Shown: positions 27,852-52,788 of the stretch, in pieces
Position numbering within the stretch: the first letter of the stretch is position 1
Layout: every line of letters starts with the position of its first letter
Assembly: GCA_030602705.1 (NCBI GenBank)
Contig: JAUVZF010000005.1
Coordinates: 2,663-66,662, forward strand
From: Planctomycetota bacterium
GTDB taxonomy: Bacteria; Planctomycetota; Phycisphaerae; FEN-1346
Direction: 5' to 3'
DNA: 64,000 bases
Notes under the pieces: generated by a model
Database searches by the model: none
Seen by the model: only the letters and a program-made list of their open reading frames with translations
Told to the model about the DNA's origin: nothing
Position numbers and translations under genes: made by a program

Positions 27852-29627
27852 TCATTGCGCGCTCTCGACACTTTCGGGAATGCCGGCTCGCCGCGCGCCG
27901 GCTCCCGCACGTTCGGCGGCCTGGATTGCTGCCACCGCCTTGTCGGTCTCGGCTGCGAGGCGTTCGATGTCGCCGTCCGCGAGCAGCGTTTCGAGTGTAG
28001 CGTGTGCCTGTTGGATATCGGCCACACGCTCGTCCGGCAACTGCTCGCCGGCGTCGCCGGTTCCCGCCAGGATGGCGGCGCTTTCGCTGAGCGCGTTGCG
28101 CGCACGGGTGCGTGCCTCGAATTCGCGACGGCGCCGCCTGTCTTCGGCGTAGAACGCCTCGGCTTCTCTGAGCCGCGCCCGCACGTCCGCCTCTCCAAGG
28201 AGGGCGTCGCTGCGGATCTCGATGCTGCTGCACTCGTCGGTCCGCAGGTCTTCCGCCTCGACCCGAACAACGCCGTCGGCATCGACGAAGAACGTCACTT
28301 CGACGCGGCCTCGCCCGCGTTCGAGCGGGTGGATGTCGAGGTTGAAACTACCGAGCGAGACGTTCTCGCCGGCCACCTCGCGTTCGCCCTGAAGCACCTC
28401 GATGTTCATCGATTGCTGTCCGTCGGCGGCGTTGGTGAACAACCGGTTTGCGGAACAGGGAATCGTAGTATTGCGGCGGATGAGCCGCGAGAACAGCCTG
28501 CCCTCGGTCTTGATTCCCAGCGACAGTGGAATGACATCGACCAGGACGGCCCTTCGCGGCAGCCCCGACAGCATGCCCGCCTGCACCGCGGCCCCGATTG
28601 CCACAACCTCGTCGGGGTTGACCTTTGTGTAGGGTTCCTGTCGAAACATCTCCCGGACCAGCGCCCGCACGGCGGGCATGCGCGTTGAGCCGCCGACCAA
28701 CACCACGCGGTCGATCTGATCGACCTCCAGGCGAGCGTCCTTGAGGGCTTGGCGGGTCGGCCCGACCATGCGGCCGAGGAGGTGCCTGGTGGCCGCCTCG
28801 AATTCAGCGCGCCTCACGCGCGATTGCAGTTCGTGATGCCGGTCCGTCTCGGCGGAGGCGACCGTCAGAGAGACGAATGCCTCGGCGTGGTCGGAGAGGT
28901 CGCGTTTGGCCTTCTCGGCGGCGTCCAGGGCTCGGCGCCTCAGTCTCCGGTCTGCCAAGACATCAAAGCCGGACTGCCGGCGGAACCGTTCCGCCAGGAG
29001 CATGAGCATGACCTCATCCCAATCATCTCCGCCCAGATGGTTGTCGCCGTTGACCGCCTTGACCTCGAACAGGCCGTCACCGAGTTCCAGGATCGAGACG
29101 TCGAACGTGCCGCCGCCCAGGTCCCAGATCAAGACGGTTTGGAGGTCCTCCCGGTCGAGGCCGTAAGCCAGTGCTGCGGCCGTAGGCTCGTTGATGACGC
29201 GCAGGACCTGGAGTCCGGCCAGCCGCCCCGCCTCGAGAGTTGCCTGACGCTGCGTATGGGTGAAGTACGCGGGTACGGTGATGACGGCGCGGCGGATTTC
29301 GGTGCCGAGCCGGGCGGCGGCCCGGGCCTTGACACCTTCCAGTATGCGGGCAGAGACTTCCTGGGGTGTCATCCGGCGTCCGCCCAGAGAGACGACATGG
29401 GCCGTGCCCATGCGTCTCTTGATCGAGAAGACGGCGTCGTCCGGCTCCGCTTCGGCGCGGGCGCGGGCCGGGGCGCCGGCGAGCACTCTGCCGCCGGCAT
29501 CGACTGCGACGACGGACGGCAACAGCCGCTCGCCGGCAGCGTCTGTGATGACCTCCGCGCGCCGGCCGTCGTAGAGTGCCGCGACGGAGAACGTTGTCCC
29601 CAGGTCGATGCCGATGGCCTCATGCAC
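27852..29627 (-). CDS. Hsp70-family chaperone (DnaK-like), about 590 aa.
   Basis: IGIDLGTTFSVAAL, AVITVPAYFTHTQRQAT, VLIWDLGGGTFDVSIL. Start taken at the GTG (VHEAIGIDLG) at 29627, 6 nt after a perfect AAGGAGG; the listed upstream extension overlaps gvpJ. Confidence 0.85.
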   Translation of the reverse strand: MHEAIGIDLGTTFSVAALYDGRRAEVITDAAGERLLPSVVAVDAGGRVLAGAPARARAEAEPDDAVFSIKRRMGTAHVVSLGGRRMTPQEVSARILEGVKARAAARLGTEIRRAVITVPAYFTHTQRQATLEAGRLAGLQVLRVINEPTAAALAYGLDREDLQTVLIWDLGGGTFDVSILELGDGLFEVKAVNGDNHLGGDDWDEVMLMLLAERFRRQSGFDVLADRRLRRRALDAAEKAKRDLSDHAEAFVSLTVASAETDRHHELQSRVRRAEFEAATRHLLGRMVGPTRQALKDARLEVDQIDRVVLVGGSTRMPAVRALVREMFRQEPYTKVNPDEVVAIGAAVQAGMLSGLPRRAVLVDVIPLSLGIKTEGRLFSRLIRRNTTIPCSANRLFTNAADGQQSMNIEVLQGEREVAGENVSLGSFNLDIHPLERGRGRVEVTFFVDADGVVRVEAEDLRTDECSSIEIRSDALLGEADVRARLREAEAFYAEDRRRRREFEARTRARNALSESAAILAGTGDAGEQLPDERVADIQQAHATLETLLADGDIERLAAETDKAVAAIQAAERAGAGARRAGIPESVESAQ

Positions 29628-29880
29628 GGATGGCCTCCTTCGGCTCCGGTGTTCTGCGGGCGCGTTCCCATGCGCGGATGTTCTCATCCCACTGGGTGAA
29701 TATGCCGTAGTTGAGCATGGTTTCCATGCCGGCCAGGGCCGCCCGCAGTTTCACGCCCAGCAGCGGAATGCCCGCCACCGAAATGACGACGTCGGCGTCG
29801 ATGATCAGTCCCTTTTCCAGGACGCGATCCAGCAGATCGACGAGTGTCGCTTTCGCCGCGAATTCGGGAACGTCGTTCAT
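29620..29880 (-). CDS. Gas vesicle protein of the GvpA/J/M family (GvpJ-like).
   Basis: ATLVDLLDRVLEKGLIIDADVVISVAGIPLLGVKLRAALAGMETMLNYG matches the GvpA-family core LxDxLDRxLDKGxVIxAD...GIELL. Confidence 0.8.
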   Translation of the reverse strand: MNDVPEFAAKATLVDLLDRVLEKGLIIDADVVISVAGIPLLGVKLRAALAGMETMLNYGIFTQWDENIRAWERARRTPEPKEAIRA

Positions 29881-29896
29881 CTCGAATTACCCCAGG

Positions 29897-30895
29897 CTAT
29901 GTAAAACTGTAAGGCGGCCACGGGCCCGTCACGCGGACCGAGAGGCCCTTGCCGGTGCAGTAATCCGTGAAGGCCGCCCTCAACGCCTCATCCGTGCCGT
30001 TCTCGACCAGGCAGGAGAGGTTCGCCACCATGCGCAGGTTGTCTTCGCCTGTCTTGAGTTTGCCGACCGACACCTCGACCGCGTGTCGGCCGGCCAGATC
30101 GAACGCCTCGCGGAAAACGGTCTCGGCACGTTTCAGGATCTGTTCCCTCACCCGCTTCTCCAACTCCTGCCTCTGGAAGTAGAGGGCGCCCTCGGATTTG
30201 CCGGTCAGGCCCTTTTTGAGTTCGACAACCTCCGGGCAGGTCGCCATCACGTCGGGCGTGGCCGATTCCACGTCCAGAAAGACCTGGACGCCGTACTCCT
30301 GCCGGCGTCGCACCCGGTCGGCTTTCTGGAGCAGTACGTCGCCCTCATCGTGGAGCCACCTTCGGAGGTGATCCGCGGCATCCGCACGGTCCTTTCCGGA
30401 GACCATCGTGTCGAACGCCATCGGCAGGACGGCCGCATAGCGCTGGCATGCTTCCGCCACCACCGCCTGATGGCGGATGACCCACTTCTCAACGGTTTCC
30501 TTGTCTTTCGAGGCATACGGCTTCGCCGCGCACTCATGGACAACGGCCACCAGGCCATTCCCAGGAACGGCAAACACTTCGGCGTCGTCGATGCCGGCGG
30601 TTTCAAACGGGATGGGCTCTCCCACCGTCACGGCATAGACGTAGAGGGCCCGCTGATGGGTGTCCTGGGCGTTTTCCGTTCTCGGCCGTGGGGATGCCTG
30701 TCTCGCCGGCCGCCCTTGGGGACCCGTTGCCGGCCCGCCCTCGACGAGGGAAAGCAGGGCGTCGACCTCGGCCGGGTCCGTCTGGACGCCGGCCGCGCCC
30801 AGCAGCGTGCTCAGGTTCTCACGTGTCACCGGTTTACCGGCCGATCTCAGCGTTGCTGCCGCATAGATCAGGCTCGCGTCGTCTCTTTTGTTCAT
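29897..30895 (-). CDS. GvpF/L-family gas vesicle protein with an N-terminal extension resembling the ribosomal P-stalk (aL12/P1/P2) N-terminal domain.
   Basis: The C-terminal two-thirds is GvpF/L-like (ALYVYAVTVG..., ending VTGPWPPYSFT). N-terminus LIYAAATLRSAGKPVTRENLSTLLGAAGVQTDPAEVDALLSLVEGG versus archaeal P1 [47 protein letters not shown]. Start overlaps the gvpK 3' end by ~60 nt, so the start is uncertain. Confidence 0.7.
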   Translation of the reverse strand: MNKRDDASLIYAAATLRSAGKPVTRENLSTLLGAAGVQTDPAEVDALLSLVEGGPATGPQGRPARQASPRPRTENAQDTHQRALYVYAVTVGEPIPFETAGIDDAEVFAVPGNGLVAVVHECAAKPYASKDKETVEKWVIRHQAVVAEACQRYAAVLPMAFDTMVSGKDRADAADHLRRWLHDEGDVLLQKADRVRRRQEYGVQVFLDVESATPDVMATCPEVVELKKGLTGKSEGALYFQRQELEKRVREQILKRAETVFREAFDLAGRHAVEVSVGKLKTGEDNLRMVANLSCLVENGTDEALRAAFTDYCTGKGLSVRVTGPWPPYSFT

Positions 30896-31214
30896 CGTTC
30901 ACCGCTCTGTTGGCCGCCTCCGTCACGCCCGGCGCGACGAGGGTCCGCAGGGCGTCGTCCACCAGGTCGTCGAGGCCTTCGCGGACGTTGGCGACCGCTT
31001 CTGAAATGCCCTGCTCCCGTTTGATCTGCTCGATGGCCTTGTCGAGTTCGATAAACGCGTTGCCGAGCCGCTCGACCTCCTCTTCGGTAAGGCTGCCGCC
31101 TTCCACACGGCGCATGGCCTGGAGGCGCAGGGCGTCTCGAATGATCTCGATAAGCGCGAGGACGAGCCCCAACAGGCCGGCCTTGAGTTTTTTCTCGTCG
31201 ATATTGATTGCCAC
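30834..31214 (-). CDS. gvpK: Gas vesicle protein GvpK.
   Basis: LLGLVLALIEIIRDALRLQAMRRVEGGSLTEEEVERLGNAF is the GvpK signature. Confidence 0.8.
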   Translation of the reverse strand: MAINIDEKKLKAGLLGLVLALIEIIRDALRLQAMRRVEGGSLTEEEVERLGNAFIELDKAIEQIKREQGISEAVANVREGLDDLVDDALRTLVAPGVTEAANRAVNDEQKRRREPDLCGSNAEIGR

Positions 31215-31241: not shown

Positions 31242-31634
31242 TTAGGCCTTCATCGCCTCCGCGCTGATCCAACCGCACCACGGGCAGCCCTGCTCGATCA
31301 ATTCCGTACGCGCCATGCGCTTGCCGCACTGCGGGCAGGTGTCCTTGGCCTCCATTGCGTCCTTCCATGCTGGCGTCTGGAGGTTGGTGCCGGAGGGGAA
31401 CTCAAGGCCGTACTGGGCGGCGGTCTCAAACGATGCCAGCGCCGCCCGGATCCTGATGCCCAGCAGTTCCACGCCGACAAGGTCAATCGTGATATCGGCG
31501 TTGATCACGAGGCCCTTGTCGAGGATACGGTCAACGAGATCGACAAGGGTGCCGCCCTGTCGCTGGGGGGCCTGTTGCTGGAGGGCCTGTTCAGGAGCCA
31601 CGAATTCTCCTTCCCTTCGCCTTGGCAAGCGCAA
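31242..31634 (-). CDS. GvpA/J-family gas vesicle protein fused to a C-terminal C4 zinc ribbon.
   Basis: GvpA-family core [48 protein letters not shown], then ...CPQCGKRM...CPWCGW at the C-terminus. Confidence 0.7.
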   Translation of the reverse strand: MRLPRRREGEFVAPEQALQQQAPQRQGGTLVDLVDRILDKGLVINADITIDLVGVELLGIRIRAALASFETAAQYGLEFPSGTNLQTPAWKDAMEAKDTCPQCGKRMARTELIEQGCPWCGWISAEAMKA

Positions 31635-32625
31635 CCATTTCCCTGCCGAGATCGGTGGTGTGGTATCGGCGTCCCCCTAGCGCGGCCAGAAGCCCCTTGT
31701 CGCACAGTTTCTTGCGCAGCATTTGCACGTAGCCGTCGGTCAGACGGGTACGGTACGGGACATTGGGGGCCTGGCCGGCGTCTTCCGCCTCACAGTAGGC
31801 TCGGAGGACCTGTAGTTCCGTGGCGGTGGGTGACGCCCGCGTTTGAGGGGCCCCGCCGGTGTCCGAACGGTGTGGAGTGACCACGCCCTTGCCTTTGCAC
31901 CCCTTACAGTACAAGTTAGTACCGGGCTCTTTGCCCCTTCCCCGACAGGTGGCGCACGTGATCGCCCCCTCATCAACCTCGACGTATCCGCGCCCTCGGC
32001 AGACCAGACAGGTCACATAGTTCCTGGCCTCTTTCGAACCGCGGCCCTTGCAGAAAGCGCACACGACCACAGGCGGCTTAAGCACGATCGCTCCCGTGCC
32101 GTGACAGACGGGACACCTGGTGCCGGCCGGGCGTTCGCCCTTGCCCTTGCAGAAGGAGCAAAGCAGGTGGCTCTCGTACAAGAGTTCAGCCGGCCCCGAA
32201 GTCCACTTCTTGACAGTGCCCTTTGGGCTGGACCCGCCACTGCCGGCCACCCTGATCGCATTCCACAGATCAGGTTCTTGGCCCGGCTTTGCAAAGGACC
32301 TGGCTTGCGGCGAGCGACGAACGCCACGGCCCATAACCTTCCAGGGCTCGCCTTCCCGGAAGGAGACGGGCTGGGCCCCTGTGTCACCGCCGGCGGGCGC
32401 CAGCACATCCCCATTGCCGCCAACCGCCTGTTTACCTTTTTGGGTGACACAGAATCCCCGATTGGGCTTGAAAGCCACATAATCGGCCTTGACGAGGTCG
32501 ATGCACAGCCCGAGGGCCTCTTCGACGGTCGTACCGATTCTCTCGCTGACAGCGCCCGTGGATGCATGTCCATCCAACGCAGCCACGGCCTCCAGTGCTT
32601 GTTGTTCGATCGTGCTCGCACTCAT
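31591..32625 (-). CDS. wHTH, DnaJ-type zinc-finger repeats, wHTH three-part protein.
   Basis: N-terminal wHTH, central CSFCKGKGE/CPVCHGTGA/CAFCKGRGS/CLVCRGRGY/CATCRGRGK/CKGCKGKGV, and C-terminal ...TDGYVQMLRKKLCDKGLL. Start probably at MSASTIEQ with SD GGGAGA. Confidence 0.6.
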   Translation of the reverse strand: MSASTIEQQALEAVAALDGHASTGAVSERIGTTVEEALGLCIDLVKADYVAFKPNRGFCVTQKGKQAVGGNGDVLAPAGGDTGAQPVSFREGEPWKVMGRGVRRSPQARSFAKPGQEPDLWNAIRVAGSGGSSPKGTVKKWTSGPAELLYESHLLCSFCKGKGERPAGTRCPVCHGTGAIVLKPPVVVCAFCKGRGSKEARNYVTCLVCRGRGYVEVDEGAITCATCRGRGKEPGTNLYCKGCKGKGVVTPHRSDTGGAPQTRASPTATELQVLRAYCEAEDAGQAPNVPYRTRLTDGYVQMLRKKLCDKGLLAALGGRRYHTTDLGREMVALAKAKGRRIRGS

Positions 32626-32739
32626 GTTTACCGTCTCCCTTGCCATGAGGTGTTGGCTCAGTTCCAGGCTGACTTGGGCCGGTTTTCATCGGCGCCGCGA
32701 GGCTGCAACGGCCCGCGTGCCGCGTTCGGCCGCGGCGGT

Positions 32740-35109: not shown

Positions 35110-35880
35110 TTACCCCTTACGCCGTTTTCTCTTGGCAGGCGATTTTTTCTTCGCCGGCTTGGCAGTTTTCGCGGCAGGTTCTTCGCCGGCGGCCTCGATC
35201 TGCGCTTTCAGGCGGCGGAACTCGGCCTGGGTGATGTCGCCGGTCTCCAGTTTCATCCGCATGGCGAGCAGTTGCTCGGCCGCGCTCCGTTTCTGTCTTG
35301 ATGCGGCATCGCGAACGCCCTTGGCGATTCGATGCACTAAGCGCGGCCCGCCCAGCACCGGCTGGCTCAGGAACCAGGCCAGCGCGCTGATCAGGCCTAT
35401 CTCTTTGGGTCGGCCGGGGCGGAAAGGCGTGTCCCGGAACTCGGCCGGCCAGTTCGCGCCCCGGGTCCCGAAGTGCCGCGCAAGCGTAATCCGGCCTGTA
35501 ACATTCGCCGGCGACGGGAGACGCCTGCTGATCGATGCGGCGGGAAACTGGCCGGCACCCGGCAGATACCGGCAGGTACGAACCTTCGACACTGCGGCCG
35601 TGGGAGGCAAGGCCGCTGCGGCGATCGTGGGTTCGGCCTTCTTCGCGGCCGCGCGGGGTGCCGCGGCTCTGCGCGCCCCCTCGCCGTCGCCTCCGGAGGG
35701 TCTTTTCTTCGCGCGCGCGGCCTTCTTCGCGGCCGCGCGGGGGTCCACGGCGCTGCGTGCCCCTTCGCCGTCGCCTCTGGGAGGCTTCTTCTTCGCACGC
35801 GCGGTCCGCCTCGCCGCCGTGCGGGTCTTGACGTTCCTGCGGGCGGTCTTGGCGCGGTCTGTGGAAATCTTTCTGATCAT
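35110..35880 (-). CDS. Basic, low-complexity N-terminus joined to a GvpG-like C-terminal domain.
   Basis: C-terminus LISALAWFLSQPVLGGPRLVHRIAKGVRDAASRQKRSAAEQLLAMRMKLETGDITQAEFRRLKAQIEAA parallels GvpG (LLLxPVxG...W...I......LL.LQ...GEISEEEF). N-terminus is a KKA/RAA-rich repeat. Confidence 0.5.
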   Translation of the reverse strand: MIRKISTDRAKTARRNVKTRTAARRTARAKKKPPRGDGEGARSAVDPRAAAKKAARAKKRPSGGDGEGARRAAAPRAAAKKAEPTIAAAALPPTAAVSKVRTCRYLPGAGQFPAASISRRLPSPANVTGRITLARHFGTRGANWPAEFRDTPFRPGRPKEIGLISALAWFLSQPVLGGPRLVHRIAKGVRDAASRQKRSAAEQLLAMRMKLETGDITQAEFRRLKAQIEAAGEEPAAKTAKPAKKKSPAKRKRRKG

Positions 35881-37928
35881 CCTTTTCTCCCCACGTCAAA
35901 CAAGATCGACTCGATGTCCCTGAGGGCGTCCAGCCCTGCAATCGGCTGGGGCAACAGGGGCACCGAGACGACGCGCAGACCGGGATGTGCCTTGCGAAAC
36001 CTGGCCCGGTGCTGCTCCTGTACCTTTCTGGTGCGTCGGCAGAAGGCGCACCGGTTCTTGGGGATCATCTTGTTGAAGACGACCGAATGGACACCGACGC
36101 CCAGTCCGGAGAGCCGTTCGATGAGGCGCTGCGACTCGCGGACGGCCATCTTCTCGGCGACCGTCACAACGACCGATTCGGCCTGCGCGGGGTCCGTCAG
36201 GATGGCCTGAAAACGGCGCAGGCCGCGGGCCAGATCGACCATCTCCTCGCCGGCGGTGTGCCCGTACTTGAGCAATACTTTGAAGATGGCTCGCAGCCAG
36301 GCATGGGCCAGTTCAGGCAGTTCGAGAAACCGCAGCGCATGGCCGGTAGGCGCCATGTCGAAAACGAACAAGTCGTACTGCCCGCCGTCGGCCAGGTCCA
36401 TCACGCTCTTGAGGAACATGATCTCATCGACGCCGGGAGGAGAAAGCGACGCGAACTGCTGCATCGATTCCTTTTCGAACCGGACTTGCACTCCGCTGGA
36501 GGTGAGATTGTCGAAGATGCCGGTAATCGAATCGCCGTAACGCTGCCGGAAACGCTCGAACATCACCTCCGGATCCTGCTCGCAGGCGAAGAGGTTCTCG
36601 GCCGCCACGGACACGATCTCAGGACCGACGGGCGAACCGAGGCAATCGGCCAGGGAATGGGCCGGGTCCGCCGAGAACACGAGGACCCGCTTGTCGGGGT
36701 GGGCACCGGCCAGGCGCAGGCCCGTGGCGGCGGCCAGCGATGTCTTGCCCACGCCGCCCTTGCCCGCGAAGAACGTGAAACGAACGCCCTCGGTGAGCAC
36801 CAGTGGTTCGCCCGGCTTGCACCGGACGGGACGCGTCTCCTTCCCTTGCTTTGGCACCGATCGGACGAACGGATTGACCGAGGTAGGTTCGTCGGCGAGG
36901 CCCTCCAGCACGCCCACAACGCGGTTCAGGCCCTCTTTGCCGTGCACCTCGCCGGCAAACAAGGGGACAGGCAGCAATTTCCGGGGTGACAGCGCCGTCG
37001 TAGCGGCGAGCACCGATGATTGCCAGTGATTTCTGGCGGCACAGAACGCACACTTGGCCGGCTCGACCAACTGATTCACGATCAGTCGTTTTACATGGAT
37101 TCCCAGAGCGGCCAGTTCTTGCAGAAGGCGCTCTGTCTCGGCAAGGGCCATCGGCTCGGCGATCGTCACCGGAACGAATTCCGCCCGGTCACGCGCCGTG
37201 AACATTTGCCTGGCCCTCTCAATCCTCCGATCAAAGTTGATCAGGAACCGCTCCGCGGCGTCAACCGGCGGACGCTTCCGACCGCGGAAATGACGTTTCA
37301 GATAGCGGAACTTGCGCTGCATGATGTCCAGGGCCTTCAGCCAGCGCTTCATCTCCCCCGGCATGGTCAGGAAGCACAGCGCGTGCCCGGTCGGCGCGGT
37401 GTCCACCAGGATTAAACCCCATTGGCCCTCGTCCAGCAGGCGTGCGATCTCCACGACCGCCATCACCTCGTCCACGCCCGGAAGCGTCAGGTCGAAGAAG
37501 CCATCGATGTCGGAGCGGTCCAGGAGCGTCCCCCGATCGAGCAGGGTGCGCAAGGCTTCGCCGTTCTCCCTGGCAAAGGCGTCCGCCAGGCTCGCCGCGT
37601 CGAGTTCCATCGCCCACAGGCCGTCGGCGCCCCGGACGGGAACCGCCTCCGCGCCGACGGTCTGGCCGAGGCTGTCGGCCAGCGAGTGGGCCGGGTCGAC
37701 AGACAGGACGAGAATCCTGCGACCGTCGCGCGAGGGGCGGCGGGCGATGGCGAGTGCGGCGGCGGCTGCCAGCGTCGTCTTGCCCACACCGCCCTTGCCG
37801 CCGAAGAACACGAGTTGTGCCCCGGCCCATTCGTCGAGAAACCCCTTCGGCGGGGCGACCTGCGGCCGCGCTGCCGGCGGCCGCGCCGGCGGCGCCGTCG
37901 GGATCGCTTGTGCCATGGACACAGCCAA
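35877..37928 (-). CDS. ArsA/Get3-family ATPase, internally duplicated into two halves.
   Basis: Two P-loops (FFGGKGGVGKTTLAAAAALA and FFAGKGGVGKTSLAAATGLRLA), two DPAHSLAD(S/C)LG motifs, and two A-loops (VDTAPTGHALCFL, FDMAPTGHALRFL). Confidence 0.8.
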   Translation of the reverse strand: MAVSMAQAIPTAPPARPPAARPQVAPPKGFLDEWAGAQLVFFGGKGGVGKTTLAAAAALAIARRPSRDGRRILVLSVDPAHSLADSLGQTVGAEAVPVRGADGLWAMELDAASLADAFARENGEALRTLLDRGTLLDRSDIDGFFDLTLPGVDEVMAVVEIARLLDEGQWGLILVDTAPTGHALCFLTMPGEMKRWLKALDIMQRKFRYLKRHFRGRKRPPVDAAERFLINFDRRIERARQMFTARDRAEFVPVTIAEPMALAETERLLQELAALGIHVKRLIVNQLVEPAKCAFCAARNHWQSSVLAATTALSPRKLLPVPLFAGEVHGKEGLNRVVGVLEGLADEPTSVNPFVRSVPKQGKETRPVRCKPGEPLVLTEGVRFTFFAGKGGVGKTSLAAATGLRLAGAHPDKRVLVFSADPAHSLADCLGSPVGPEIVSVAAENLFACEQDPEVMFERFRQRYGDSITGIFDNLTSSGVQVRFEKESMQQFASLSPPGVDEIMFLKSVMDLADGGQYDLFVFDMAPTGHALRFLELPELAHAWLRAIFKVLLKYGHTAGEEMVDLARGLRRFQAILTDPAQAESVVVTVAEKMAVRESQRLIERLSGLGVGVHSVVFNKMIPKNRCAFCRRTRKVQEQHRARFRKAHPGLRVVSVPLLPQPIAGLDALRDIESILFDVGRKG

Positions 37929-43190: not shown

Positions 43191-43439
43191 CTAAACGGGG
43201 GCGCCTTCTTCCTTGAGTTTTCGGATGCGTTCGATCTCCTCGAGCAGGTCGGCCTCTCGCCGCTCGTACTCCTCCTCGGAGACCTCGCCTAGTTCGAGGC
43301 GCATCTGGAGTTCGAGCAGTTGCTGTCGGACCGAGTTTTCGTCGGTCATCTCCGCGTACGCGGCTTCCCCGAGCTTCTTGGAGACCCAGACCGGGACCCT
43401 GATTGGCGCGAGCAAGATGTCGTCTAGCACGAAAGCCAT
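43191..43439 (-). CDS. gvpG: Gas vesicle protein GvpG.
   Basis: MAFVLDDILLAPIRVPVWVSKKL...QLLELQMRLELGEVSEEEYERREADLLEEIERIR is the GvpG pattern. Confidence 0.75.
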   Translation of the reverse strand: MAFVLDDILLAPIRVPVWVSKKLGEAAYAEMTDENSVRQQLLELQMRLELGEVSEEEYERREADLLEEIERIRKLKEEGAPV

Positions 43440-43452: not shown

Positions 43453-44205
43453 TCATTCCCAGGTCACCACGACCTCAACGAAGTTCAGGGGGGGAATCGG
43501 GCCGACGTACTTGAGGCGCACCCGGCCGTTCGTTTCGCCCTCCAGCGCCTCGACGCACCCGTCGAACTCCTGCTCGTGCCTGCGTTCCACGAGGAACGAC
43601 GCGTTGAGGATCATGGGGTCGCCGAAGACGTCGTTCACTTTGCGGTCGAACCAATGGCCGTCGAAGCGGCGGAGGATGTGCCTGGCTTCCCTGGCTTTCT
43701 TGCGCTCGAGGGCGTTCTTGACCATCTCTCCAAGGCGGACGCCGTCGGCCGGCGTGACGGCTGTGCGGCTGCTGGCGTGGGCGCGGGCGGCCTTGATGCG
43801 GGGGTTTTCGTCGACGATTTCGGCGAAGATGGCCGGCATGTCGGTCCACAGGACTTTGAGGCCCAGTTCGGCCTTGTCCGCCACCATTTCGAGCAGATCG
43901 CACAACTCGTCGTGTCGGGCGAGCAGGACTTTCTCAACGATCTGGTCCCGATGGTTGGCAATGCAGCCAAAGCGGACCGGCAGCATCGGCCAGCGCGCCA
44001 TCGCCGCCTCCATGACGCGCTGGTGCGCGATCACGCTGGCGCGGGCCACGTCGTAGCGGTCGGCCTTGCAGCGGCTGACAACGGCGGCGATATCGCCGTG
44101 CGGCAGCATCTCGACCGGCTCGCCGTTTCCATCGATGCCGGGCACGTCCAGGACGGCCGGTTCGGCTGTGCCGACGATGGCGTAGATGTAGAATCCCCCT
44201 TCCAT
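43453..44205 (-). CDS. gvpF: Gas vesicle protein GvpF/L family.
   Basis: FYIYAIVGTAEP...AAVVS..., VLPVRFG, and C-terminal YVGPIPPLNF. Confidence 0.8.
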   Translation of the reverse strand: MEGGFYIYAIVGTAEPAVLDVPGIDGNGEPVEMLPHGDIAAVVSRCKADRYDVARASVIAHQRVMEAAMARWPMLPVRFGCIANHRDQIVEKVLLARHDELCDLLEMVADKAELGLKVLWTDMPAIFAEIVDENPRIKAARAHASSRTAVTPADGVRLGEMVKNALERKKAREARHILRRFDGHWFDRKVNDVFGDPMILNASFLVERRHEQEFDGCVEALEGETNGRVRLKYVGPIPPLNFVEVVVTWE

Positions 44206-44207
44206 CG

Positions 44208-45227
44208 CTAGGGCGCCTCCACCGGTTCGACGAGCAGGACCTCGGGGCGGTCGGTGTCGCGAAGGTCGAGTCCTTGCGGCGGGCAGAAACGCTTGAGGAG
44301 GTCCGCCGCCGCCTTGACGCGTTCGAACTTCTGCGGGAGGTTAGGGTCTGCGGGATCGGTGTCCGGATGAAAGCGGCGCATGGCGGACCGGGCGGCATCC
44401 GCCACCATCTGCGGGGTGATGCGTTCCGCCAAGTCGATCTCGCGCCGGGCCGCATCCAGGTCAGCCACCCGCGCACGATGCAACTGGACCGTGGTGAAAC
44501 TGTACGGCGGCAGTGGGCCGACGATGCGGAAGTTCAGGGCGCCCTGTTCCTGCCGGTCGGCTTCTGCGACCCGGGCTTCGAGCCGGTCACGCCCCTCGGC
44601 ATTAACCAGGAAGGCCGCGTTGATGATCATGGCCTCGTGGCGGGTCTGGTGCCGGACGGTCCGGCGCGCCACCTGTTCCCACTGCGGCAGGATGCGGTCT
44701 TCGAGGGCACGCTTCCTGTCATCGAGGCGGTCCTTGACGAGTTTGCCCAGGCCCAACCGTTCGGCCATCGACCGGCCGGGCGGGAGTTCGGCAATCCGGT
44801 TCTTGTGTTCCACGATGTCTTCTTCGCGGCCTATCTCCCGGAACACCTGCTGGATGTCCGGCCACATGGCCACCACGTCGATTTCGATCAGGCCGTCGAC
44901 TTCGGCGAGCAAAGCCTGCAGGTTGTCGCGGTTGGTCCGGAGCATCTCGGCCACCTGGACCTCGCTGTCAAGCACGGTTCCGAACTTCATAGGCAAGACG
45001 GTATGGCCGGCGTTCATAACCGTCTCAGAAACGAACTGGTGCTGGGCCAGGTGCCTGGCCAGTTCCTCCTTCGGCACCGAGGTGACGTCGCCGTTGCCGG
45101 TGTCGCTGACGACGGCGGCAATGCTGCCGTAGGCGATGCTATGGACGCTGGTCGCCTCGCCACCGACGCCGATCGGCCCGAAATCGGCGGATGCGCCGTC
45201 CGCGATGAATCCGTAGGTGTACTTCAT
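44208..45227 (-). CDS. GvpF/L-family protein fused to a C-terminal J-domain (Hsp70 co-chaperone module).
   Basis: GvpL core (YTYGFIADGA...IAAVVSD...LPMKFGTV...IVGPLPPYSF) followed by RREIDLAERITPQMVADAARSAMRRFHPDTDPADPNLPQKFERVKAAADLLKRF, which contains the J-domain HPD motif. Compare ...AYRKLAMKYHPDRN...KFKEIKEAYEVL. Confidence 0.75.
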   Translation of the reverse strand: MKYTYGFIADGASADFGPIGVGGEATSVHSIAYGSIAAVVSDTGNGDVTSVPKEELARHLAQHQFVSETVMNAGHTVLPMKFGTVLDSEVQVAEMLRTNRDNLQALLAEVDGLIEIDVVAMWPDIQQVFREIGREEDIVEHKNRIAELPPGRSMAERLGLGKLVKDRLDDRKRALEDRILPQWEQVARRTVRHQTRHEAMIINAAFLVNAEGRDRLEARVAEADRQEQGALNFRIVGPLPPYSFTTVQLHRARVADLDAARREIDLAERITPQMVADAARSAMRRFHPDTDPADPNLPQKFERVKAAADLLKRFCPPQGLDLRDTDRPEVLLVEPVEAP

Positions 45228-47419
45228 CAGGGGGCGTCTCCTTTTGCCGGCGGCTCGGCCGATTCGCCGATGACCTCACGCACCGCGGCATCCATATCGG
45301 CCGCCGTAAGGGCCATCTTCGAGAGCGGCAATTCCTTCTTCTCGGCAAGGTGGATGAACCGCCGGATGGCGTTAAGCGCGGCACAGCGGCAGATAGCGGC
45401 AATCCGGGCGCCGCTGGCGTGACCGCAGGCTTTTGCGATCCGCTTCAGGTCCACGTCGTCGGCCAGCGGCTTGCCGCGCATGTGCACCTTGAAGATCTCC
45501 AGTTTCGCGTCCTCGTCCGGAAACGGCAGTTCGATGATGAGGTCGAAACGGCCTTCTCGCAGGAGTGCGGGGTCGAGCATGTCCATGCGGTTCGTGGCCG
45601 CCAGGACAATGACGTCTTTGAGTTCTTCGATGCCGTCCATTTCGCTGAGGAACTGGCTGATGACGCGGTCTGCGGCGCCCTGGGCGGTGCCCCGCCTGGG
45701 CACCAGGGCGTCGATTTCGTCGAAGAACACGATGCAGGGCGCCGCCTGCTTGGCCTTGTGGAAGACCTCTCGCACGCCGCGCTCGCTCTCGCCCACCCAC
45801 TTGGACATAAGTTCCGGCCCTTTGACGGGGATGAAGTTGAGGCTGCTCTCCTTGGCCAGCGCTTTCGCCGCCAGCGTCTTTCCGGTGCCGGGGGCGCCGT
45901 GCATGAGGATGCCCTTGGCTGGCCGGGTCTTGGCGTGCTCGAAGAGTTTGCGGTGCTTGAGCGGCCACTCGACGGCTTCGCGGAGCGACTGCTTGACCTC
46001 CTGGAGGCCGCCGACGTCCGCCCAACCGACGTTGGGCACTTCGACGAAGACCTCGCGCATGACGGACGGCTCGACCTCGCACAGGGCTTCGCGGAAGTTG
46101 TCCATGGTGACCTCAAGCGTCTCGAGCGTCTCGTAGGGTATCTCTTTGAGTTCGAAGTCGATGTCGGGGAAGATGCCGCGCAGCGCTGCCATGGCGGCTT
46201 CGCGGCCGAGGGCCTCGAGGTCGGCGCCGACGTAGCCGTGTGTGATCTCGGCGATCTTGTCGAGGTCAACGTCTTCGGCCAGGGGCATGCCGCGGGTATG
46301 GATCTGGAGGATGTCGGCCCGGCCGTTGCGGTCCGGAATGCCGATCTCGAGTTCCCGGTCGAACCGCCCCGGCCGCCGCAGGGCGGGGTCGACCAGGTTG
46401 GGCAGGTTCGTGGCGCCGATGACGATGATCTGGCCGCGGCTCTTCAGGCCGTCCATCAGGGCGAGCAACTGGGAGACGACGCGTTTTTCGAGTTGCTTCT
46501 CGCCGCCCAACTCCGCGCGCTTCGGCGCGATGGCGTCGATCTCGTCGAGGAACACAATCGCCGGGGCGTGCGCGGAGGCGTCCTCGAAGATCTGGCGCAG
46601 GTGAGCCTCGCTCTCTCCGTAGTACTTGTGCATGATCTCCGGGCCGCTCAGGTGGGTGAAATAGGCGTCGGTCTCGTTGGCCACCGCCCGCGCGATCAGC
46701 GTCTTGCCGCATCCCGGAGGACCGTGAAGAAAGACCCCTTTCGGCGGTTCAATGCCAAGCCGCTCGAAGACCTCGGGGTACTTCAGCGGCAGTTCGATCA
46801 TCTCGCGTACCCGCTGGGTCTCACGCGCCAGCCCTCCGATGTCCTCATAGGTGACCCTTGCGCGAGCCGCGGGTTCGCCGGCCTTGGCTTCGCCGCGCAT
46901 CTCAATCGTGGTGGTCGATTGAATGAGCACGGCGCCCTTGGGCACGGTGGTAACGACCTCGAAATCCTGTGTCCGCGAGCCGAACATCGTCGCGCGCACG
47001 GAATCCCCCGCCGTAAGCGGCAGGCTCTCCAAAAGCGTTCCGATGTAACGCATGTCCCGCTTGCCGCGCAGGCCGCGCATCTCTGTCAGCGGCGCCAGGA
47101 CGATCTTCCTGGCGGGGGCGGCGTCGGCCTTCTCGATCTGGACGTGCTCGTCGATCCCGGCGCCCGCATTGCCGCGAAGGATGCCGTCGATGCGGATCAT
47201 GTCGGTGCCGCGATCCTCGACGTACGTCGGCATGACCTTCGCCGGCGTCGCACGCTTGCCGCGCACCCAGACAACGTCGCCGACCTTCACACCGAGCGGA
47301 TCGAACAGTTTCGGGTCGAACCGTGCGAGGCCGCGGCCGACGTCCTTGGACGCGGCTTCGGCCACCTTCAGCGAGAGCGTTGGGGCCTTCTTCTCTTTCT
47401 TCTTCGCGCTCGGAGTCAT
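45227..47419 (-). CDS. Cdc48/VCP-like AAA+ ATPase (N-domain, D1 and D2).
   Basis: Cdc48-type N-domain ([22 protein letters not shown]...[12 protein letters not shown]), two Walker A sites ([15 protein letters not shown]; [15 protein letters not shown]), and second-region-of-homology motifs. Start taken at MTPSAKKK. Confidence 0.85.
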
Positions 47420-47535
47420 GACGACTTTCCTGTTGCTCTCCCGCCGCTCGCCCGGTAGGCGCACGCCGCGGATGGGTATGCCGGCGCCGTCGCTTGCGTT
47501 CCTCGAGCCCGCCGCCTCAGGAGACCGGCAGTAAC

Positions 47536-48126
47536 CTATTCGCCTTTCTTCTTGAGGACGATCTCGAGGATGCCGTTCTCGTAGGAGGAGGTGACGTTCT
47601 CCTCGTCGACGACTGCGGGGAGCAGGACTTCCTTCTGGTACTTCCTCTTGCCCTCGGCCGAGAGCGTGAGCATGTCGCCCTTGACCTCCACGTGGATGTC
47701 GGCTTCCTGGATTCCCGGCAGTTCCGCGATGGCCCGGATGGTGTCGCCTTCCTCGAAGACGTCGACGATCGGCTCGCGCATTTCCTCGACGACCGGCCCC
47801 TTGGGGGTCTTCTTGATGTTGCCGAACGTCTCGACCTTCGGCTTGCCTCCGGCCATGGTGCGGACCGTGAAGCCGTAAACGCCTTTGATGTCCCTTCCGC
47901 GCCGCACGCCGGGAGGGATACCCCCGACGCGGAACTCGCCGGTCTTGCTCAGTTCCTCGCCCTTCTCGGCGAGTTCGGTGGCCTTGTCCACGAGGCTGCT
48001 GAGACCATTGATGAGCCCGCCAAGGCCAAGGCCCTTGAAGATGCCGCCAAGGTCAACCACGGGCGTGGCATCTTCCTCTGCGGCTTCCTCTTTCTTGTCC
48101 TGGTCTTTCTCTTCTTTTTTCGCCAT
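47536..48126 (-). CDS. Hsp20/alpha-crystallin-family small heat-shock protein (GvpH-like position).
   Basis: Start at [11 protein letters not shown] segment ...[34 protein letters not shown]...[13 protein letters not shown]. Confidence 0.75.
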
Positions 48127-48563: not shown

Positions 48564-49469
48564 TTAACAATGCTTCTCGATCAGTGTGATGAGCCCTTTT
48601 TCCAGGCCGGGATCGGCATCTCCGTCCCCCCCGCCCGCGAGCACGTCGAGACACGTTTGCCGGAATGCCACGTCGGAAGCCGACATTCTCATGCCGTTCG
48701 TGCTCACGAGTCTGGCGATCATGATGCTGGCCCGGACGGTGGGAACCGTGCCGGTGTCCGTTTCCCTGGCGCCGCGCACAACGTCCACGATGGCGCGGGC
48801 CGTCTCGTTCGCCACGCCGCCCTTGGCGGCGGCGATGGCGATCTCGCTGTCGCGATCGTAGTGGCCGAGCCGGATGGTGATCATGCGGTCCAGCAGCGCA
48901 TCCTGTGCCCTGTGGATCCCGGCGTACTCCTCGGGGTTGCTGGTGAAGATGGCGCAGAACTCCGGTGCCACGCGCAGGTACCCGTCCTCTCCCCGGGCGG
49001 CCGGCAGGTCGAGAATCTTCTCCTCCAGGATGGGCAGCAGGACGTTGTTGGCCTCGGCCTTCGAGCGTGTGAACTCGTCGTAGAGCAGCGTGTAGCCGTT
49101 TTTGCAGGCCGCGGTCACGCGGTTGTCGACCCATTCGGGCGAGACGCTCTCTTCCGACTTGAGGACCGTGTGGATGAAGTTATCGACGAGTTTCTTTCGC
49201 CGGTATCCGTACTGGCCGCCGATCAGGTCCGAGGTGCCGAACTCCTCGTCGCCGTGGATCAGCATCACGGGGCGGCCGATCTGGCCCGCGACGTACATGG
49301 CGATCGTCGTTTTGCCCGTGCCGGCCGGCCCGCTCAGATGGACGGGGAAGCCTGCCGCCAAGTACCTCATGGCCCGTTCCACCACGTTCTGCACCGCGGG
49401 CGTGACGACGAAGCCGGGCTGCTCCTTGTCGATGAGGATCGGTGAGACCTCTGAATGTGTTGCGGTCAT
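48564..49469 (-). CDS. gvpN: Gas vesicle AAA+ ATPase GvpN (CbbQ/NirQ/MoxR-like).
   Basis: FPVHLSGPAGTGKTTIAMYVAGQIGRPVMLIHGDEEF...LLYDEFTRS...AIFTSNPEEY. Start at MTATHSEV after GGAGG. Confidence 0.85.
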   Translation of the reverse strand: MTATHSEVSPILIDKEQPGFVVTPAVQNVVERAMRYLAAGFPVHLSGPAGTGKTTIAMYVAGQIGRPVMLIHGDEEFGTSDLIGGQYGYRRKKLVDNFIHTVLKSEESVSPEWVDNRVTAACKNGYTLLYDEFTRSKAEANNVLLPILEEKILDLPAARGEDGYLRVAPEFCAIFTSNPEEYAGIHRAQDALLDRMITIRLGHYDRDSEIAIAAAKGGVANETARAIVDVVRGARETDTGTVPTVRASIMIARLVSTNGMRMSASDVAFRQTCLDVLAGGGDGDADPGLEKGLITLIEKHC

Positions 49470-49594
49470 GGTCTGCCTCCGGGTCTGGAGAGGCGCCTTC
49501 CTCGGGAAGCCAGGCGAACCGCCGGTGCCATCTCTATGGTTTTGATGGGGCACATGTGCGGGTCCCCGAACGGCTTCCGAGGAAGGCTCCCTCT

Positions 49595-51059: not shown

Positions 51060-51062
51060 GGT

Positions 51063-52088
51063 TTACTCTCCTTCCGTTGCGCCCGCCATTTCGAGGACAG
51101 GCTGCTCAGACTCAGGCCCGAGGCCGGGCTGTTGCGGCTCGGGCGGCCCTTCGGCCGGCATCGGCCGCGAGGCGCAGTGCTTGTCGATCAGATTCGAGAT
51201 CACCTCCGCCGCCCTGGAGTGGTGCGCGCGGTCGCCCACGCGGCTGGTCTCGGAGGACAGGATGTCGATGCAGGTCTGCCTGAAGACGGTGTTGTCGCGG
51301 GCGACGACGCCCTTGCGAATCCTGAGCGTCTTGGCAATCATCATGGCGCCGCGCACCGTCGGGGCGAACTCGATCGCGTCGGACTCGCGCAGGGCGCGCA
51401 CGATCCGCACGATGCTCGTGGCGTCGGCCTCGGACAGGCCCGACTTGGCCACCGTAATCTGGATCTCGGTCTCCTCGTCGTAGTGGTCCAGGTCGAGGGT
51501 GATCATGCGGTCCCTGAGGGCGTCCTGGCTGCGGTGGACGCCGGCGTATTCCTCCGGGTTGCTGGTGAAGATGGCGGTGAAGTCCGGGTCGACCCGCAGG
51601 TAGTTCCCGTCACCCTCGCGTGCGGCGGGCAGGTCCATCATGCGTTCCTGGAGGACCGAGAGCAGGACGTTGTTGGCTTCGGGCCGCGAGCGCGTGAACT
51701 CGTCGTAGATGAGCGTAAAGCCGTGCTTGCAGGCGACCGTCAGGCGGTTGTCCACCCAGCGGCGCTGCATGTCCTCTTCGGTCTTCAGGACCGAGTGGAT
51801 GAAGTTGTCCACGACCTTTCGGATGCGGTACCCGTACTCGCCGCCCACCAGGTCGGAGGTCGAGAACTCCTCGTCGCCGTGGATCATCACGACCGGCCGG
51901 CCGATCTTGGCCGCAACGTGCATCGCCAGCGTGGTCTTGCCGGTGCCGGAGACGCCCCGGAAGTGAATGGGGAACCCGGCAGCGACGTACCCGAGTGCCC
52001 GCGCCGTGATGTCCTTGACCGCCTTGGTCTCGACGAAGTTCGGCAAGGGGCGCGGTTCCAGAACCGTCGTCATCTCCTCGATTGGCAT
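51063..52088 (-). CDS. gvpN: Gas vesicle AAA+ ATPase GvpN (second paralog).
   Basis: FPIHFRGVSGTGKTTLAMHVAAKIGRPVVMIHGDEEF...LIYDEFTRS...AIFTSNPEEY. Confidence 0.85.
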   Translation of the reverse strand: MPIEEMTTVLEPRPLPNFVETKAVKDITARALGYVAAGFPIHFRGVSGTGKTTLAMHVAAKIGRPVVMIHGDEEFSTSDLVGGEYGYRIRKVVDNFIHSVLKTEEDMQRRWVDNRLTVACKHGFTLIYDEFTRSRPEANNVLLSVLQERMMDLPAAREGDGNYLRVDPDFTAIFTSNPEEYAGVHRSQDALRDRMITLDLDHYDEETEIQITVAKSGLSEADATSIVRIVRALRESDAIEFAPTVRGAMMIAKTLRIRKGVVARDNTVFRQTCIDILSSETSRVGDRAHHSRAAEVISNLIDKHCASRPMPAEGPPEPQQPGLGPESEQPVLEMAGATEGE

Positions 52089-52200
52089 GAGTCTTCTCCC
52101 TCCCTTTAGTAAGGATCCCGGTGCAGCCCTCGCGCTGCCGGTCGGACCGTTCCCACCCTCGCACGGAGCCTGGAGGCCGGAGACGACGAGATCACAAACG

Positions 52201-52788
52201 TCACTCGTTCGCCTTGGCCTTTTTCTTCTTCTTCGCCCTCTTGTTTTTGTTCGCCTTCTTGTTCCTATTCGCTTTCTTGCGGGCCGCTGCTTTGGGGGCA
52301 GCGACCGTCGTCTTCCGGTCGGCTGAGGACGTCCAACGCATCGAGGTCGAACTGGGAGCGGCGGCCGTCGTCTTAGGCCTGGGTACGTCTCGCGGGGCCC
52401 CTTGCTCGATGCCCTCCGGGTGCAGCGCTGCGTGCTCCTTGCTCACAACGCCCGTGCCGCCACAGTCGGTGCAGGTCAGGTAGTACCCGTGCACGTGGCC
52501 TTTGCCGTCACAGGAAGGACACTTGACGGCGTCCTTGGGCACCGTGACCATGCCCTTGCCCCTGCATACCATGCAGGTGATGCGTTTGTTTCGTTCGACG
52601 CCCGTGCCGCCGCAGAAGGCGCACTCGATGGCCGGCTTGGTGAGGCTCACCTTGCCGCGCCCGCCGCACACCTGGCACTTCGAGAGTTTTGACATTATTT
52701 CAAAGGGGTCCTTCCCGGTTCCTCCGCAGAAGGCACACGTCGTGGTCAACCTTCCGGCGGTCCTGGTTAACACTTTTATCTGTGCCAT
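52201..52788 (-). CDS. DnaJ-type zinc-finger repeat protein with a Lys/Ala-rich basic tail.
   Basis: CAFCGGTGKD/CQVCGGRGK/CAFCGGTGV/CMVCRGKGM/CPSCDGKGH/CTDCGGTGV, and C-terminus ...KKANRNKKANKNKRAKKKKKAKANE. Confidence 0.65.
   Translation of the reverse strand: MAQIKVLTRTAGRLTTTCAFCGGTGKDPFEIMSKLSKCQVCGGRGKVSLTKPAIECAFCGGTGVERNKRITCMVCRGKGMVTVPKDAVKCPSCDGKGHVHGYYLTCTDCGGTGVVSKEHAALHPEGIEQGAPRDVPRPKTTAAAPSSTSMRWTSSADRKTTVAAPKAAARKKANRNKKANKNKRAKKKKKAKANE

Follow-up and report, generated by a model that had tools for sequence, protein, structure and literature searches.

A gas-vesicle (gvp) gene cluster in which an Hsp70 chaperone, a J-domain fused to a GvpL/GvpF-family protein (here called GvpL-J) and six DnaJ-type zinc-finger proteins are encoded was analyzed in a 64,000-nucleotide stretch of contig JAUVZF010000005.1 of a Planctomycetota bacterium (referred to below as the window). 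The G+C content of the window is about 65%, and the closest named homologues belong to 'Candidatus Brocadiae' and to metagenome-assembled genomes (MAGs) of Planctomycetota. The cluster forms one long array of minus-strand genes extending over about 37 kb (Table 1). In the direction of transcription, it begins with a sigma-54 activator gene, gvpA, a GvpC-like gene, the zinc-finger gene at 52201-52788 and two gvpN genes separated by two uncharacterized genes. These are followed by the genes encoding Hsp20, a CDC48-type AAA+ ATPase, GvpL-J, GvpF, GvpG, a double zinc ribbon protein, GvpO and the zinc-finger protein at 41579, and then by two genes for two-domain Get3/ArsA ATPases, a lineage-specific stretch, the zinc-finger gene at 31591 and the genes encoding a GvpJ/S-like protein, GvpK, a third GvpF/L protein and GvpJ. 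The Hsp70 gene comes next, and the array continues with a small GRAM-like gene, two B12-radical SAM genes, a TPR protein gene and three zinc-finger genes, down to position 18978. The presence of gvpA along with genes for two GvpN, three GvpF/L, GvpG, GvpO, GvpK and GvpJ/S proteins identifies the array as a gas-vesicle gene cluster.

The Hsp70 was found to match PF00012 with 581.5 bits (gathering cut-off 20.6) over residues 24-589 of the long open reading frame (ORF), and the solved DnaK of Geobacillus (2V7Y) with 520 bits, in agreement with the preliminary description of this DNA, in which the gene had been recognized at 27852-29627. The start proposed there was also borne out when the sequence was read: a GTG at 29627 is preceded, with a 6-nt spacer, by AAGGAGG (29640-29634) and overlaps the TGA stop codon of gvpJ (GTGCATGA), the N-terminus translated from it (M-H-E-A-IGIDLGTT) is canonical, and a close homolog has been called at the identical length of 591 aa. 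A start at the upstream ATG 29687 was rejected, since it is the GTG that has the Shine-Dalgarno sequence, the canonical N-terminus and the length of the homolog. The gene had been placed upstream of gvpJ in the preliminary description, whereas in the direction of transcription it lies immediately downstream. A scan for promoters and terminators around the Hsp70 gene gave nothing informative. Neither grpE nor dnaJ adjoins the gene, which has no hrcA-grpE-dnaJ context.

The Hsp70 scores below the cut-offs of the DnaK equivalog models (NF001413/TIGR02350, 630 vs. 648 and 606.5 vs. 822.55 bits) as well as below that of HscA (TIGR01991, 523.8 vs. 708.55 bits), and is about 48% identical to Firmicutes DnaKs. 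The functional core (ATPase residues, interdomain linker and residues for docking of the J-domain) is intact: residues D8, K70, E171, D194, T199, and D201 (E. coli numbering) are invariant in the window Hsp70 and in 22 out of 22 members of its clade, and R167, N170, T173, L391, and D393 are also invariant in all 22. Residues R167, N170, and T173 are those which we take to contact the J-domain on E. coli DnaK (DnaK-DnaJ complex 5NRO). The substrate-arch residue corresponding to M404 of E. coli is replaced by E in the window Hsp70 and is E or Q in 20 of the 22 clade members, whereas housekeeping DnaKs have L, M or A at this position; further substitutions typical of the clade are V436 to M, N13 to Y or F, and L392 to V. 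In a neighbour-joining tree (a fast distance method, using Firmicutes DnaKs and the E. coli DnaK as the only housekeeping references, the latter as the outgroup), the gvp-linked Hsp70s formed a single clade with 99% bootstrap support, apart from the Firmicutes DnaKs. This clade spans Planctomycetota, Desulfobacterota, Nitrospirota, Bipolaricaulia, and Chloroflexota, and its members occupy the same operon position.

The surroundings of four Hsp70 homologs were inspected, namely P0199, P0215, P0168, and P0121, the last of which is 95% identical. All four were located inside gvp clusters, and a GvpL-J gene was visible near the first three. These three clusters, originating from a Thermodesulfovibrionales MAG, a MAG labelled Deltaproteobacteria and a JGI metagenome contig, carry GvpL-J, CDC48, ArsA, and zinc-finger genes. 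At least 15 of the 34 GvpL-J loci with 9 kb or more of downstream sequence have an Hsp70 gene on the same strand 4-9.6 kb away, which is a lower bound, since the window's own Hsp70 gene lies 15 kb from that of GvpL-J. The window Hsp70 shares 55% identity with an Hsp70 from another cluster, where the gene likewise follows gvpJ, although the GvpL-J proteins of the two clusters are only 37% identical. The overlap between gvpJ and the Hsp70 gene is conserved in a close relative from another metagenome (L092, about 92% identical), where the Hsp70 gene is the last one of the conserved core. Several lines of evidence thus support the view that this Hsp70 is a paralog dedicated to the cluster, judging from its family membership, position and sequence. 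The GvpL-J clusters L003 and L004 clearly end without any Hsp70 gene, and therefore the J-domain would be the universal element of this type of cluster and the Hsp70 paralog an optional addition.

The GvpJ of the window corresponds, with 61-68% identity, to the N-terminal domain of a long form of GvpJ which precedes the Hsp70 in L001, L005, L006, and L007. The long GvpJ consists of 364-372 aa in L001, L005, and L007, where it carries two GRAM/PH-like domains and a C-terminal zinc ribbon, and of 248 aa in L006, with one GRAM/PH-like domain and the zinc ribbon. The small protein encoded after the Hsp70 in the window gave no Pfam or NCBIfam match and weakly resembles the GRAM/PH-like domains of the long GvpJ; the ORFs right after the Hsp70 gene in L001, L005, and L006 likewise weakly resemble the GRAM-like domain. 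In L001, positions 17419-18513 and 20286-21035 belong to this set of genes. Based on these similarities, GvpJ (with or without GRAM domains), Hsp70 and a GRAM-like protein appear to be a recurrent triad. Genes for a histidine kinase and a response regulator lie between the long gvpJ and the Hsp70 gene in L005 (8627-10004) and L006 (8649-10004), of which one is part of a MAG labelled Deltaproteobacteria and the other is a metagenome contig.

The C-terminal tail of GvpL-J contains the motif RRFHPDTDP, in which HPD corresponds to residues 287-289. More than 100 homologs of GvpL-J were obtained in a protein search, most of them with a precomputed PF06386+PF00226 architecture, and 344 relatives were detected in a scan of one genome per species. 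The best 80 of these 344 relatives belong to more than 15 phyla, including Planctomycetota, Desulfobacterota, Nitrospirota, Chloroflexota, Omnitrophota, Aerophobetes, Actinomycetota, Bacillota, Verrucomicrobiota, Ignavibacteriales, Acidobacteria, Nitrospinae, Elusimicrobia, and Bipolaricaulia, and all of them come from MAGs or single-amplified genomes. The conservation of the HPD motif, on which the preliminary description depended, was confirmed: H287, P288, and D289 are invariant in the 31 homologs aligned (29-91% identity), and in all 79 complete tails from the 80 genomes HPD occurs 42-43 residues (50 in one case) after GPLPPYSF. The 62 non-redundant tails all match PF00226 (E <= 0.01, best E 8e-19), and the profile built from the family matches the solved J-domains of E. 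coli DnaJ, human CSP, and Tid1 at E ~6e-15.

The structural predictions point in the same direction. In the AlphaFold2 model of the window GvpL-J (predicted local distance difference test score, pLDDT, 92), the HPD motif occupies the loop connecting the predicted helices 272-285 and 297-314, which correspond to helices II and III, and the modelled J helices superpose on those of J-domains including the DnaK-bound 5NRO_B with a root-mean-square deviation of 0.9-1.4 Å over 53 columns (Foldseek probability 1.00). The core of the protein has the GvpF fold (structures 6L5D and 4QSG, Foldseek E ~1e-14, target TM-score 0.80), and beyond the J-domain the model ends in a beta-strand (residues 329-335). 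The fact that profile, motif and model agree indicates that the GvpL tail is, at the family level, a genuine J-domain with an intact HPD loop, and the stimulation of ATP hydrolysis by Hsp70 is its predicted function. To judge from its distribution, GvpL-J is a universal component of a type of gvp cluster spread over more than 15 phyla. It cannot be classed as a type I or type II DnaJ: the J-domain and the zinc fingers are located on separate proteins, and PF01556 (DnaJ_C) is absent.

The six zinc-finger proteins, designated here by their first positions, are true paralogs (pairwise E 1e-11 to 1e-54; 9e-44 between 41579 and 31591), and no J-domain was found in any of them in a profile scan, as had been described previously; the number of CxxCxGxG units amounts however to 4-10 rather than 4-9. 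Five of the six proteins score above the gathering threshold of PF00684 (32.7 bits), the exception being 23876 with 25.5 bits. Neither a G/F region nor a DnaJ C-terminal client-binding domain was detected in the eight proteins comprising the six zinc-finger proteins, GvpL-J and Hsp70. The gene at 41579 occupies a position matching that of zinc-finger genes in L001, L006, and L092. The six-unit family (about 117 aa) has 98 detectable relatives, all from metagenomes. The AlphaFold2 model of 52201 shows pLDDT values above 89 at residues 13-116; since its only Foldseek matches, with Anti-TRAP, BSD2, and the zinc-finger region of DnaJA2, are weak and non-significant (E 0.1-1), the family assignment rests on the hidden Markov models.

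The Hsp70 appears to be one part of a larger set of chaperones encoded in the cluster, including CDC48, Hsp20, and the two Get3/ArsA ATPases, as far as can be told from family matches. The CDC48 gene lies directly upstream of that of GvpL-J in 45 of 54 loci, and in the window its stop codon overlaps the GvpL-J start codon in the pentanucleotide TGATG (45225-45229), with AAAGGAG upstream, as read directly at this junction, so that the two genes are translationally coupled. A module of 10.3 kb is strain-variable: in L092, which keeps the Hsp70 gene, the homolog of window positions 15166-17553 directly follows that gene. The module, the G+C content of which is slightly lower (58-62%), contains genes for the GRAM-like protein, two B12-radical SAM proteins, a TPR protein and three of the six zinc-finger copies, along with basic or Q/P-rich ORFs.

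Table 1. Positions of the main features of the gas-vesicle gene cluster in the window, with the basis on which each was assigned.
Feature	Coordinates	Strand	Basis
GvpL/GvpF-family protein with C-terminal J-domain (GvpL-J)	44208..45227	-	PF06386 186 bits; PF00226 19.1 bits
J-domain of GvpL-J, residues 254-314, helices I-III	44286..44468	-	HPD codons 44361-44369; translation checked
Hsp70, 591 aa, divergent DnaK-like paralog of gvp-linked clade	27852..29627	-	PF00012
gvpJ, 86 aa, translationally coupled to Hsp70 gene	29620..29880	-	PF00741, 60.5 bits
Small protein after Hsp70, weakly like GRAM/PH-like domains of long GvpJ	27305..27778	-	blastp E 1e-6 to 5e-6
Zinc-finger protein, 6 units, between gvpC-like and gvpN	52201..52788	-	PF00684 42.5 bits; motif count
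Zinc-finger protein, 6 units, C-terminal winged-helix-like region, downstream of gvpO	41579..42502	-	PF00684 41.9 bits
Zinc-finger protein, 6 units, flanked by winged-helix-like regions	31591..32646	-	PF00684 47.9 bits; motif count, paralogy
Zinc-finger protein, 4 units, in strain-variable module	23876..24385	-	PF00684 25.5 bits, below gathering 32.7
Zinc-finger protein, 6 units, in strain-variable module	19851..20303	-	PF00684 41.5 bits
Zinc-finger protein, 10 units (6+4), in strain-variable module	18978..19682	-	PF00684 66.7 bits
CDC48-type double-ring AAA+ ATPase	45227..47464	-	TIGR01243 950 bits; CDC48_N, CDC48_2
Hsp20/alpha-crystallin protein	47536..48126	-	PF00011, PF17886; start inferred from translation
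Two-domain Get3/ArsA-family ATPase, copy 1	39263..41560	-	PF02374 426 bits; TIGR00345 423 bits
Two-domain Get3/ArsA-family ATPase, copy 2	35877..37928	-	PF02374 423 bits
Strain-variable module, 10.3 kb	17554..27883	-	absent from ~92%-identical relative L092
Sigma-54 activator	55248-56582	-	opens cluster
gvpA, major shell protein, presumed main client	54282..54488	-	84% identical to Anabaena GvpA
GvpC-like repeat protein	52892..54250	-	141-bp tandem repeat; directly after gvpA
GvpN-type AAA ATPase, copy 1	51063..52088	-	PF07728; 51-79% identical to counterparts in related loci
GvpN-type AAA ATPase, copy 2	48564..49553	-	PF07728
GvpF, without J-domain	43453..44205	-	PF06386, 202 bits
GvpG	43191..43439	-	PF05120
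GvpO	42620..42895	-	PF05800
GvpJ/S-like protein with C-terminal zinc ribbon	31242..31634	-	tblastn with GvpA and GvpJ queries; start codon uncertain
GvpK	30834..31214	-	tblastn with Halobacterium GvpK, E 3e-11
Third GvpF/L paralog, without J-domain	29897..30895	-	PF06386, 184 bits

These data suggest that the locus is an extended gvp operon in which the assembly of the shell is wired directly to the Hsp70 cycle, a reading to which we assign a probability of roughly 0.62 on the basis of the sequences and the structural models. In Bacillus megaterium, GvpL binds GvpJ, GvpS, and GvpK early and GvpA later, and has been proposed to act as a scaffold for seeding (PMC11445434), while GvpA is a hydrophobic, aggregation-prone protein which is proteotoxic without assembly factors (PMC12848028). 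Assuming that GvpL-J is a seeding scaffold of the same kind, its J-domain would trigger ATP hydrolysis in an Hsp70 loaded with the hydrophobic alpha1-beta1-beta2 segments of GvpA, GvpJ, or GvpS, and the capture and release of the client would thereby be coupled to the site where the shell is nucleated or grows. The GvpA-family proteins might thus stay soluble until they are handed over to the nascent or growing shell, and the altered substrate arch (M404 to E or Q) may tune the Hsp70 to these clients. In clusters without an Hsp70 of their own, the J-domain could recruit the housekeeping DnaK. These clients would also be held or unfolded by CDC48, Hsp20, the two Get3/ArsA proteins and the zinc-finger proteins, and the last would not form an obligatory half of an Hsp40. 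Of the models considered, we infer that this capture by GvpL-J and Hsp70 is the most economical.

The main rival, which we regard as unlikely, is that GvpL-J, Hsp70, and CDC48 form a disaggregase or recycling system resembling DnaK-DnaJ-ClpB, which would extract GvpA from collapsed vesicles or aggregates for reuse or degradation. The frequent adjacency of the CDC48 and GvpL-J genes and their overlap in the window would fit such a system, as would the position of the Hsp20 gene immediately upstream of that of CDC48, since small heat-shock proteins are holdases which prime aggregates. However, the same adjacency persists in L091, where GvpL has no J-domain, and CDC48 presumably lacks the M-domain by which ClpB docks Hsp70. 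In addition, the Hsp70 gene is coupled to gvpJ in a gvpS-K-F/L-J sub-operon, the products of which are thought to seed the vesicle (PMC11445434). It might also be argued from the many GvpL-J clusters without an Hsp70 gene, from the 48% identity with Firmicutes DnaKs and from a score of 630 bits, close to the 648-bit DnaK cut-off, that an ordinary stress chaperone came to lie beside the gvp genes by chance, and that the J-domain of GvpL serves the housekeeping DnaK only; this is improbable in the case of a single clade maintained at the same operon position over five phyla, with a conserved coupling to gvpJ, clade-specific substitutions in the substrate cleft and no hrcA-grpE-dnaJ context. Least probable of all, in our opinion, is a purely regulatory function, in which the target of the Hsp70/J pair would be a regulator of gvp expression, titrated or folded in the way that sigma-32 or HspR is by DnaK, and the shell proteins would be left untouched. 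The kinase and response regulator genes of L005 and L006, the sigma-54 activator gene with which the cluster opens and its many winged-helix-like proteins could be read in this way, but the kinase pair is absent from the window, L001, L007, and L092, and what carries the J-domain is not a regulator but a structural assembly factor having the GvpF fold.

Whether the zinc-finger proteins belong to the Hsp70 machine is a separate question. In the preliminary description they were taken to form, in trans, the client-binding half of a split Hsp70/Hsp40 machine; the dedicated Hsp70 and the J-domain delivered by GvpL stand, whereas this role of the zinc fingers is not established and is weakly supported by the sequences. 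It could just as well be that they are assembly chaperones of the gas vesicle working independently of Hsp70, either similar to BSD2 or acting as holdases of the DnaJ zinc-centre type, and the only fold matches, weak as they are, involve proteins of this kind. Each of the three homologs sampled (47-52% identity) is encoded in a gvp cluster, and in two of these clusters (L090 and L091) neither a J-domain GvpL nor an Hsp70 gene is present within the 16 kb inspected. At least one six-unit zinc-finger ORF is present in 24 of the 33 long GvpL-J loci, and zinc-finger genes are commoner in the GvpL-J loci having an Hsp70 gene (12/15) than in those without one nearby (8/19; Fisher p = 0.038, uncorrected for phylogeny). 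This enrichment speaks for a link with Hsp70, and a housekeeping DnaK, presumably present in every such organism, might allow co-operation in trans; the 8 loci without a nearby Hsp70 gene speak for independence. Since zinc-finger genes occur in clusters where no J-domain or Hsp70 gene is seen over 16 kb, and since three of the copies are strain-variable, the family is treated here as one of gas-vesicle accessory DnaJ-type zinc-finger holdases and not as part of a split Hsp40.

Several points weigh against the wiring of shell assembly to Hsp70. The J-domain of the window scores 19.1 bits with the full protein and 21.7 bits with the tail, below the PF00226 gathering threshold of 27.8, so that the claim that GvpL ends in a J-domain formally fails at this threshold in the window and holds by its HPD motif, its fold and the matching tails of the family. 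Helix I is degenerate in this J-domain, which is a feature of the window's lineage. Since about half of the GvpL-J loci have no Hsp70 gene within 10 kb, the paralog is dispensable for this type of cluster. The separateness of the Hsp70 clade is uncertain, since the tree includes no housekeeping DnaKs of the same phyla. The ORFs scanned in the cluster and its flanks (a set excluding ORFs 20495, 22666, 23484, 32740, 34305, 34646, and 35110 as well as several stretches of the flanks) and the genes called in L001 and L005-L007 included neither GrpE nor any other nucleotide-exchange factor, and within this scope the cluster appears to encode none. Lastly, the whole case consists of comparative genomics and prediction, and a role in assembly cannot be told from one in disassembly or quality control on the basis of sequence alone.

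The arrangement has its closest parallel in HscA/HscB, the Hsp70/J-protein pair dedicated to the assembly of Fe-S clusters on IscU, where a specialized Hsp70 paralog likewise has its gene within the operon of its own pathway and is paired, with no GrpE alongside, with a J-protein targeting the client or scaffold. Unlike this pair, the window Hsp70 is not an HscA, judging from its TIGR01991 score (524 vs. 709 bits), the J-domain is carried by an assembly factor of the GvpF fold instead of the client-binding domain of HscB, and the proposed clients are hydrophobic shell proteins. The Hsp70 fold, the ATPase residues, the interdomain linker, residues R167/N170/T173, the HPD motif and the CxxCxGxG zinc fingers (PF00684) are shared with DnaK/DnaJ/GrpE; in contrast to that system, the Hsp70 falls below the equivalog cut-offs, belongs to a separate clade and has E or Q in place of M404, and the J-domain and zinc fingers are on different proteins with no G/F region, DnaJ C-terminal domain or GrpE found. 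In the ClpB-DnaK bi-chaperone, the partner of Hsp70 is an Hsp100 with an Hsp70-docking M-domain, whereas the AAA+ protein here is of the CDC48 type. BSD2 of plants, an assembly chaperone of an oligomeric complex (RuBisCO), and Anti-TRAP of B. subtilis are small proteins which, like those of the window, consist of CxxCxGxG motifs without any J-domain; they have fewer units than the zinc-finger proteins studied here (usually six, and 4-10 in the window), which form a family tied to gvp genes.

As regards the canonical gvp clusters of Anabaena (gvpACNJKGFVW), B. megaterium (gvpA2RNFGLSKJTU), and Halobacterium (gvpACNO/DEFGHIJKLM), their gvpA, gvpC-like, gvpN, gvpF/L, gvpG, gvpJ/S, gvpK, and gvpO genes all have counterparts in the window; to our knowledge, none of the three includes an Hsp70, a J-domain, a CDC48-type AAA+ protein or DnaJ-type zinc-finger proteins. 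Two-domain ArsA/Get3 homologs and Hsp20 have already been noted among the gvp genes of four phyla (Castillo and Saier, 2010, PMC2963123), and Hsp70, DnaK, and DnaJ are mentioned nowhere in that survey of gvp operons. The statement that no gvp-linked Hsp70 had been described previously agrees with our search of the full-text literature, which turned up no account of either an Hsp70 encoded with gvp genes or a GvpL bearing a J-domain, although coverage was incomplete (many papers being under subscription) and this absence is not proof. In the databases, the proteins have been annotated automatically, for example as 'GvpL/GvpF family gas vesicle protein,' 'molecular chaperone DnaK,' or 'DnaJ-class molecular chaperone.' The component families are all known; it is their combination and its breadth which are new.

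The nucleation of gas vesicles and the means by which GvpA remains soluble and is inserted are open questions in the field, and gvp clusters are of limited use as acoustic reporter genes because the expression of GvpA is proteotoxic (PMC12848028). The arrangement described here suggests how cells handle a very sticky shell protein. GvpL-J provides a testable handle, since Hsp70 would then be expected to act at the GvpL/J/S/K seeding complex and since HPD gives the residues to be mutated, and the natural set of co-chaperones could be co-expressed to improve the heterologous production of vesicles. If the wiring to Hsp70 is true, this would be a new client-dedicated Hsp70/J pair in bacteria. A large, uncultured and mostly anaerobic share of gvp diversity, which spans more than 15 phyla and hundreds of genomes at the species level, uses accessory machinery which the four model systems lack. 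A wider reading, which we put forward tentatively and rate at slightly less than even, is that a horizontally mobile proteostasis toolkit travels with the gvp genes and delivers GvpA-family proteins to the shell, which would make it the third pathway-dedicated bacterial Hsp70 system after HscA/HscB and HscC/DjlC. Its parts, with the same reserve attached to the whole, would be the fusion of the GvpL scaffold with a J-domain, a specialized Hsp70 with a re-tuned arch, CDC48, Hsp20, Get3/ArsA, and the six-unit zinc-finger holdases, and these clusters might then be unable to function without it, also when placed in heterologous hosts.

Several other features of the cluster were also observed. The GvpC-like protein contains about 5.3 copies of a repeat of 47 aa (141 bp), as compared with the presumed 33-aa repeats of cyanobacterial GvpC, and has a winged-helix-like C-terminus. 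Between the two gvpN genes, a 306-aa protein with no known function (49595-50515, minus strand) is the product of a conserved, unnamed gvp accessory gene, since many related clusters encode a homolog (28-37% identical) in the corresponding position. The protein at 33061-33753 (minus strand) consists of about 25 copies of an 8-residue repeat, P-x-P-x-K-x-Y-T/K (24-bp period), and of a zinc ribbon at the C-terminus; it matched no family, and the stretch in which it lies differs from that of the close relative L092. It is framed by two small basic paralogs (32740-33018 and 34305-34556, minus strand; E 1e-21). A winged-helix-like module of about 70 aa is common to the otherwise unrelated proteins 22666-23487 and 38259-38687 and to the N-terminus of 31591-32646 (blastp E 3e-8 and 3e-5), and is possibly also present in 37933-38262, in 48201-48551 and at the C-termini of 41579 and 52892. 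The counterpart of this module in a relative weakly matches HTH_24, and it could be either a DNA-binding domain or a common docking domain.

On its two sides, the cluster is flanked by genes for a large serine recombinase (60541-62379, plus strand) and a DNA methylase (11770-14619, minus strand), and the G+C content falls to 58-59% at 8-12 kb of the window, which hints that the region may be mobile. The two B12-radical SAM proteins and the TPR protein encoded after the Hsp70 (25950-27308, 20495-21901, and 25019-25933, respectively, minus strand) have counterparts elsewhere: the same radical SAM and TPR pair (61 and 41% identical) occurs inside the gvp cluster of a Thermodesulfovibrionales genome (L007, 14697-17068). 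This recurrence suggests a gvp-associated modification enzyme.

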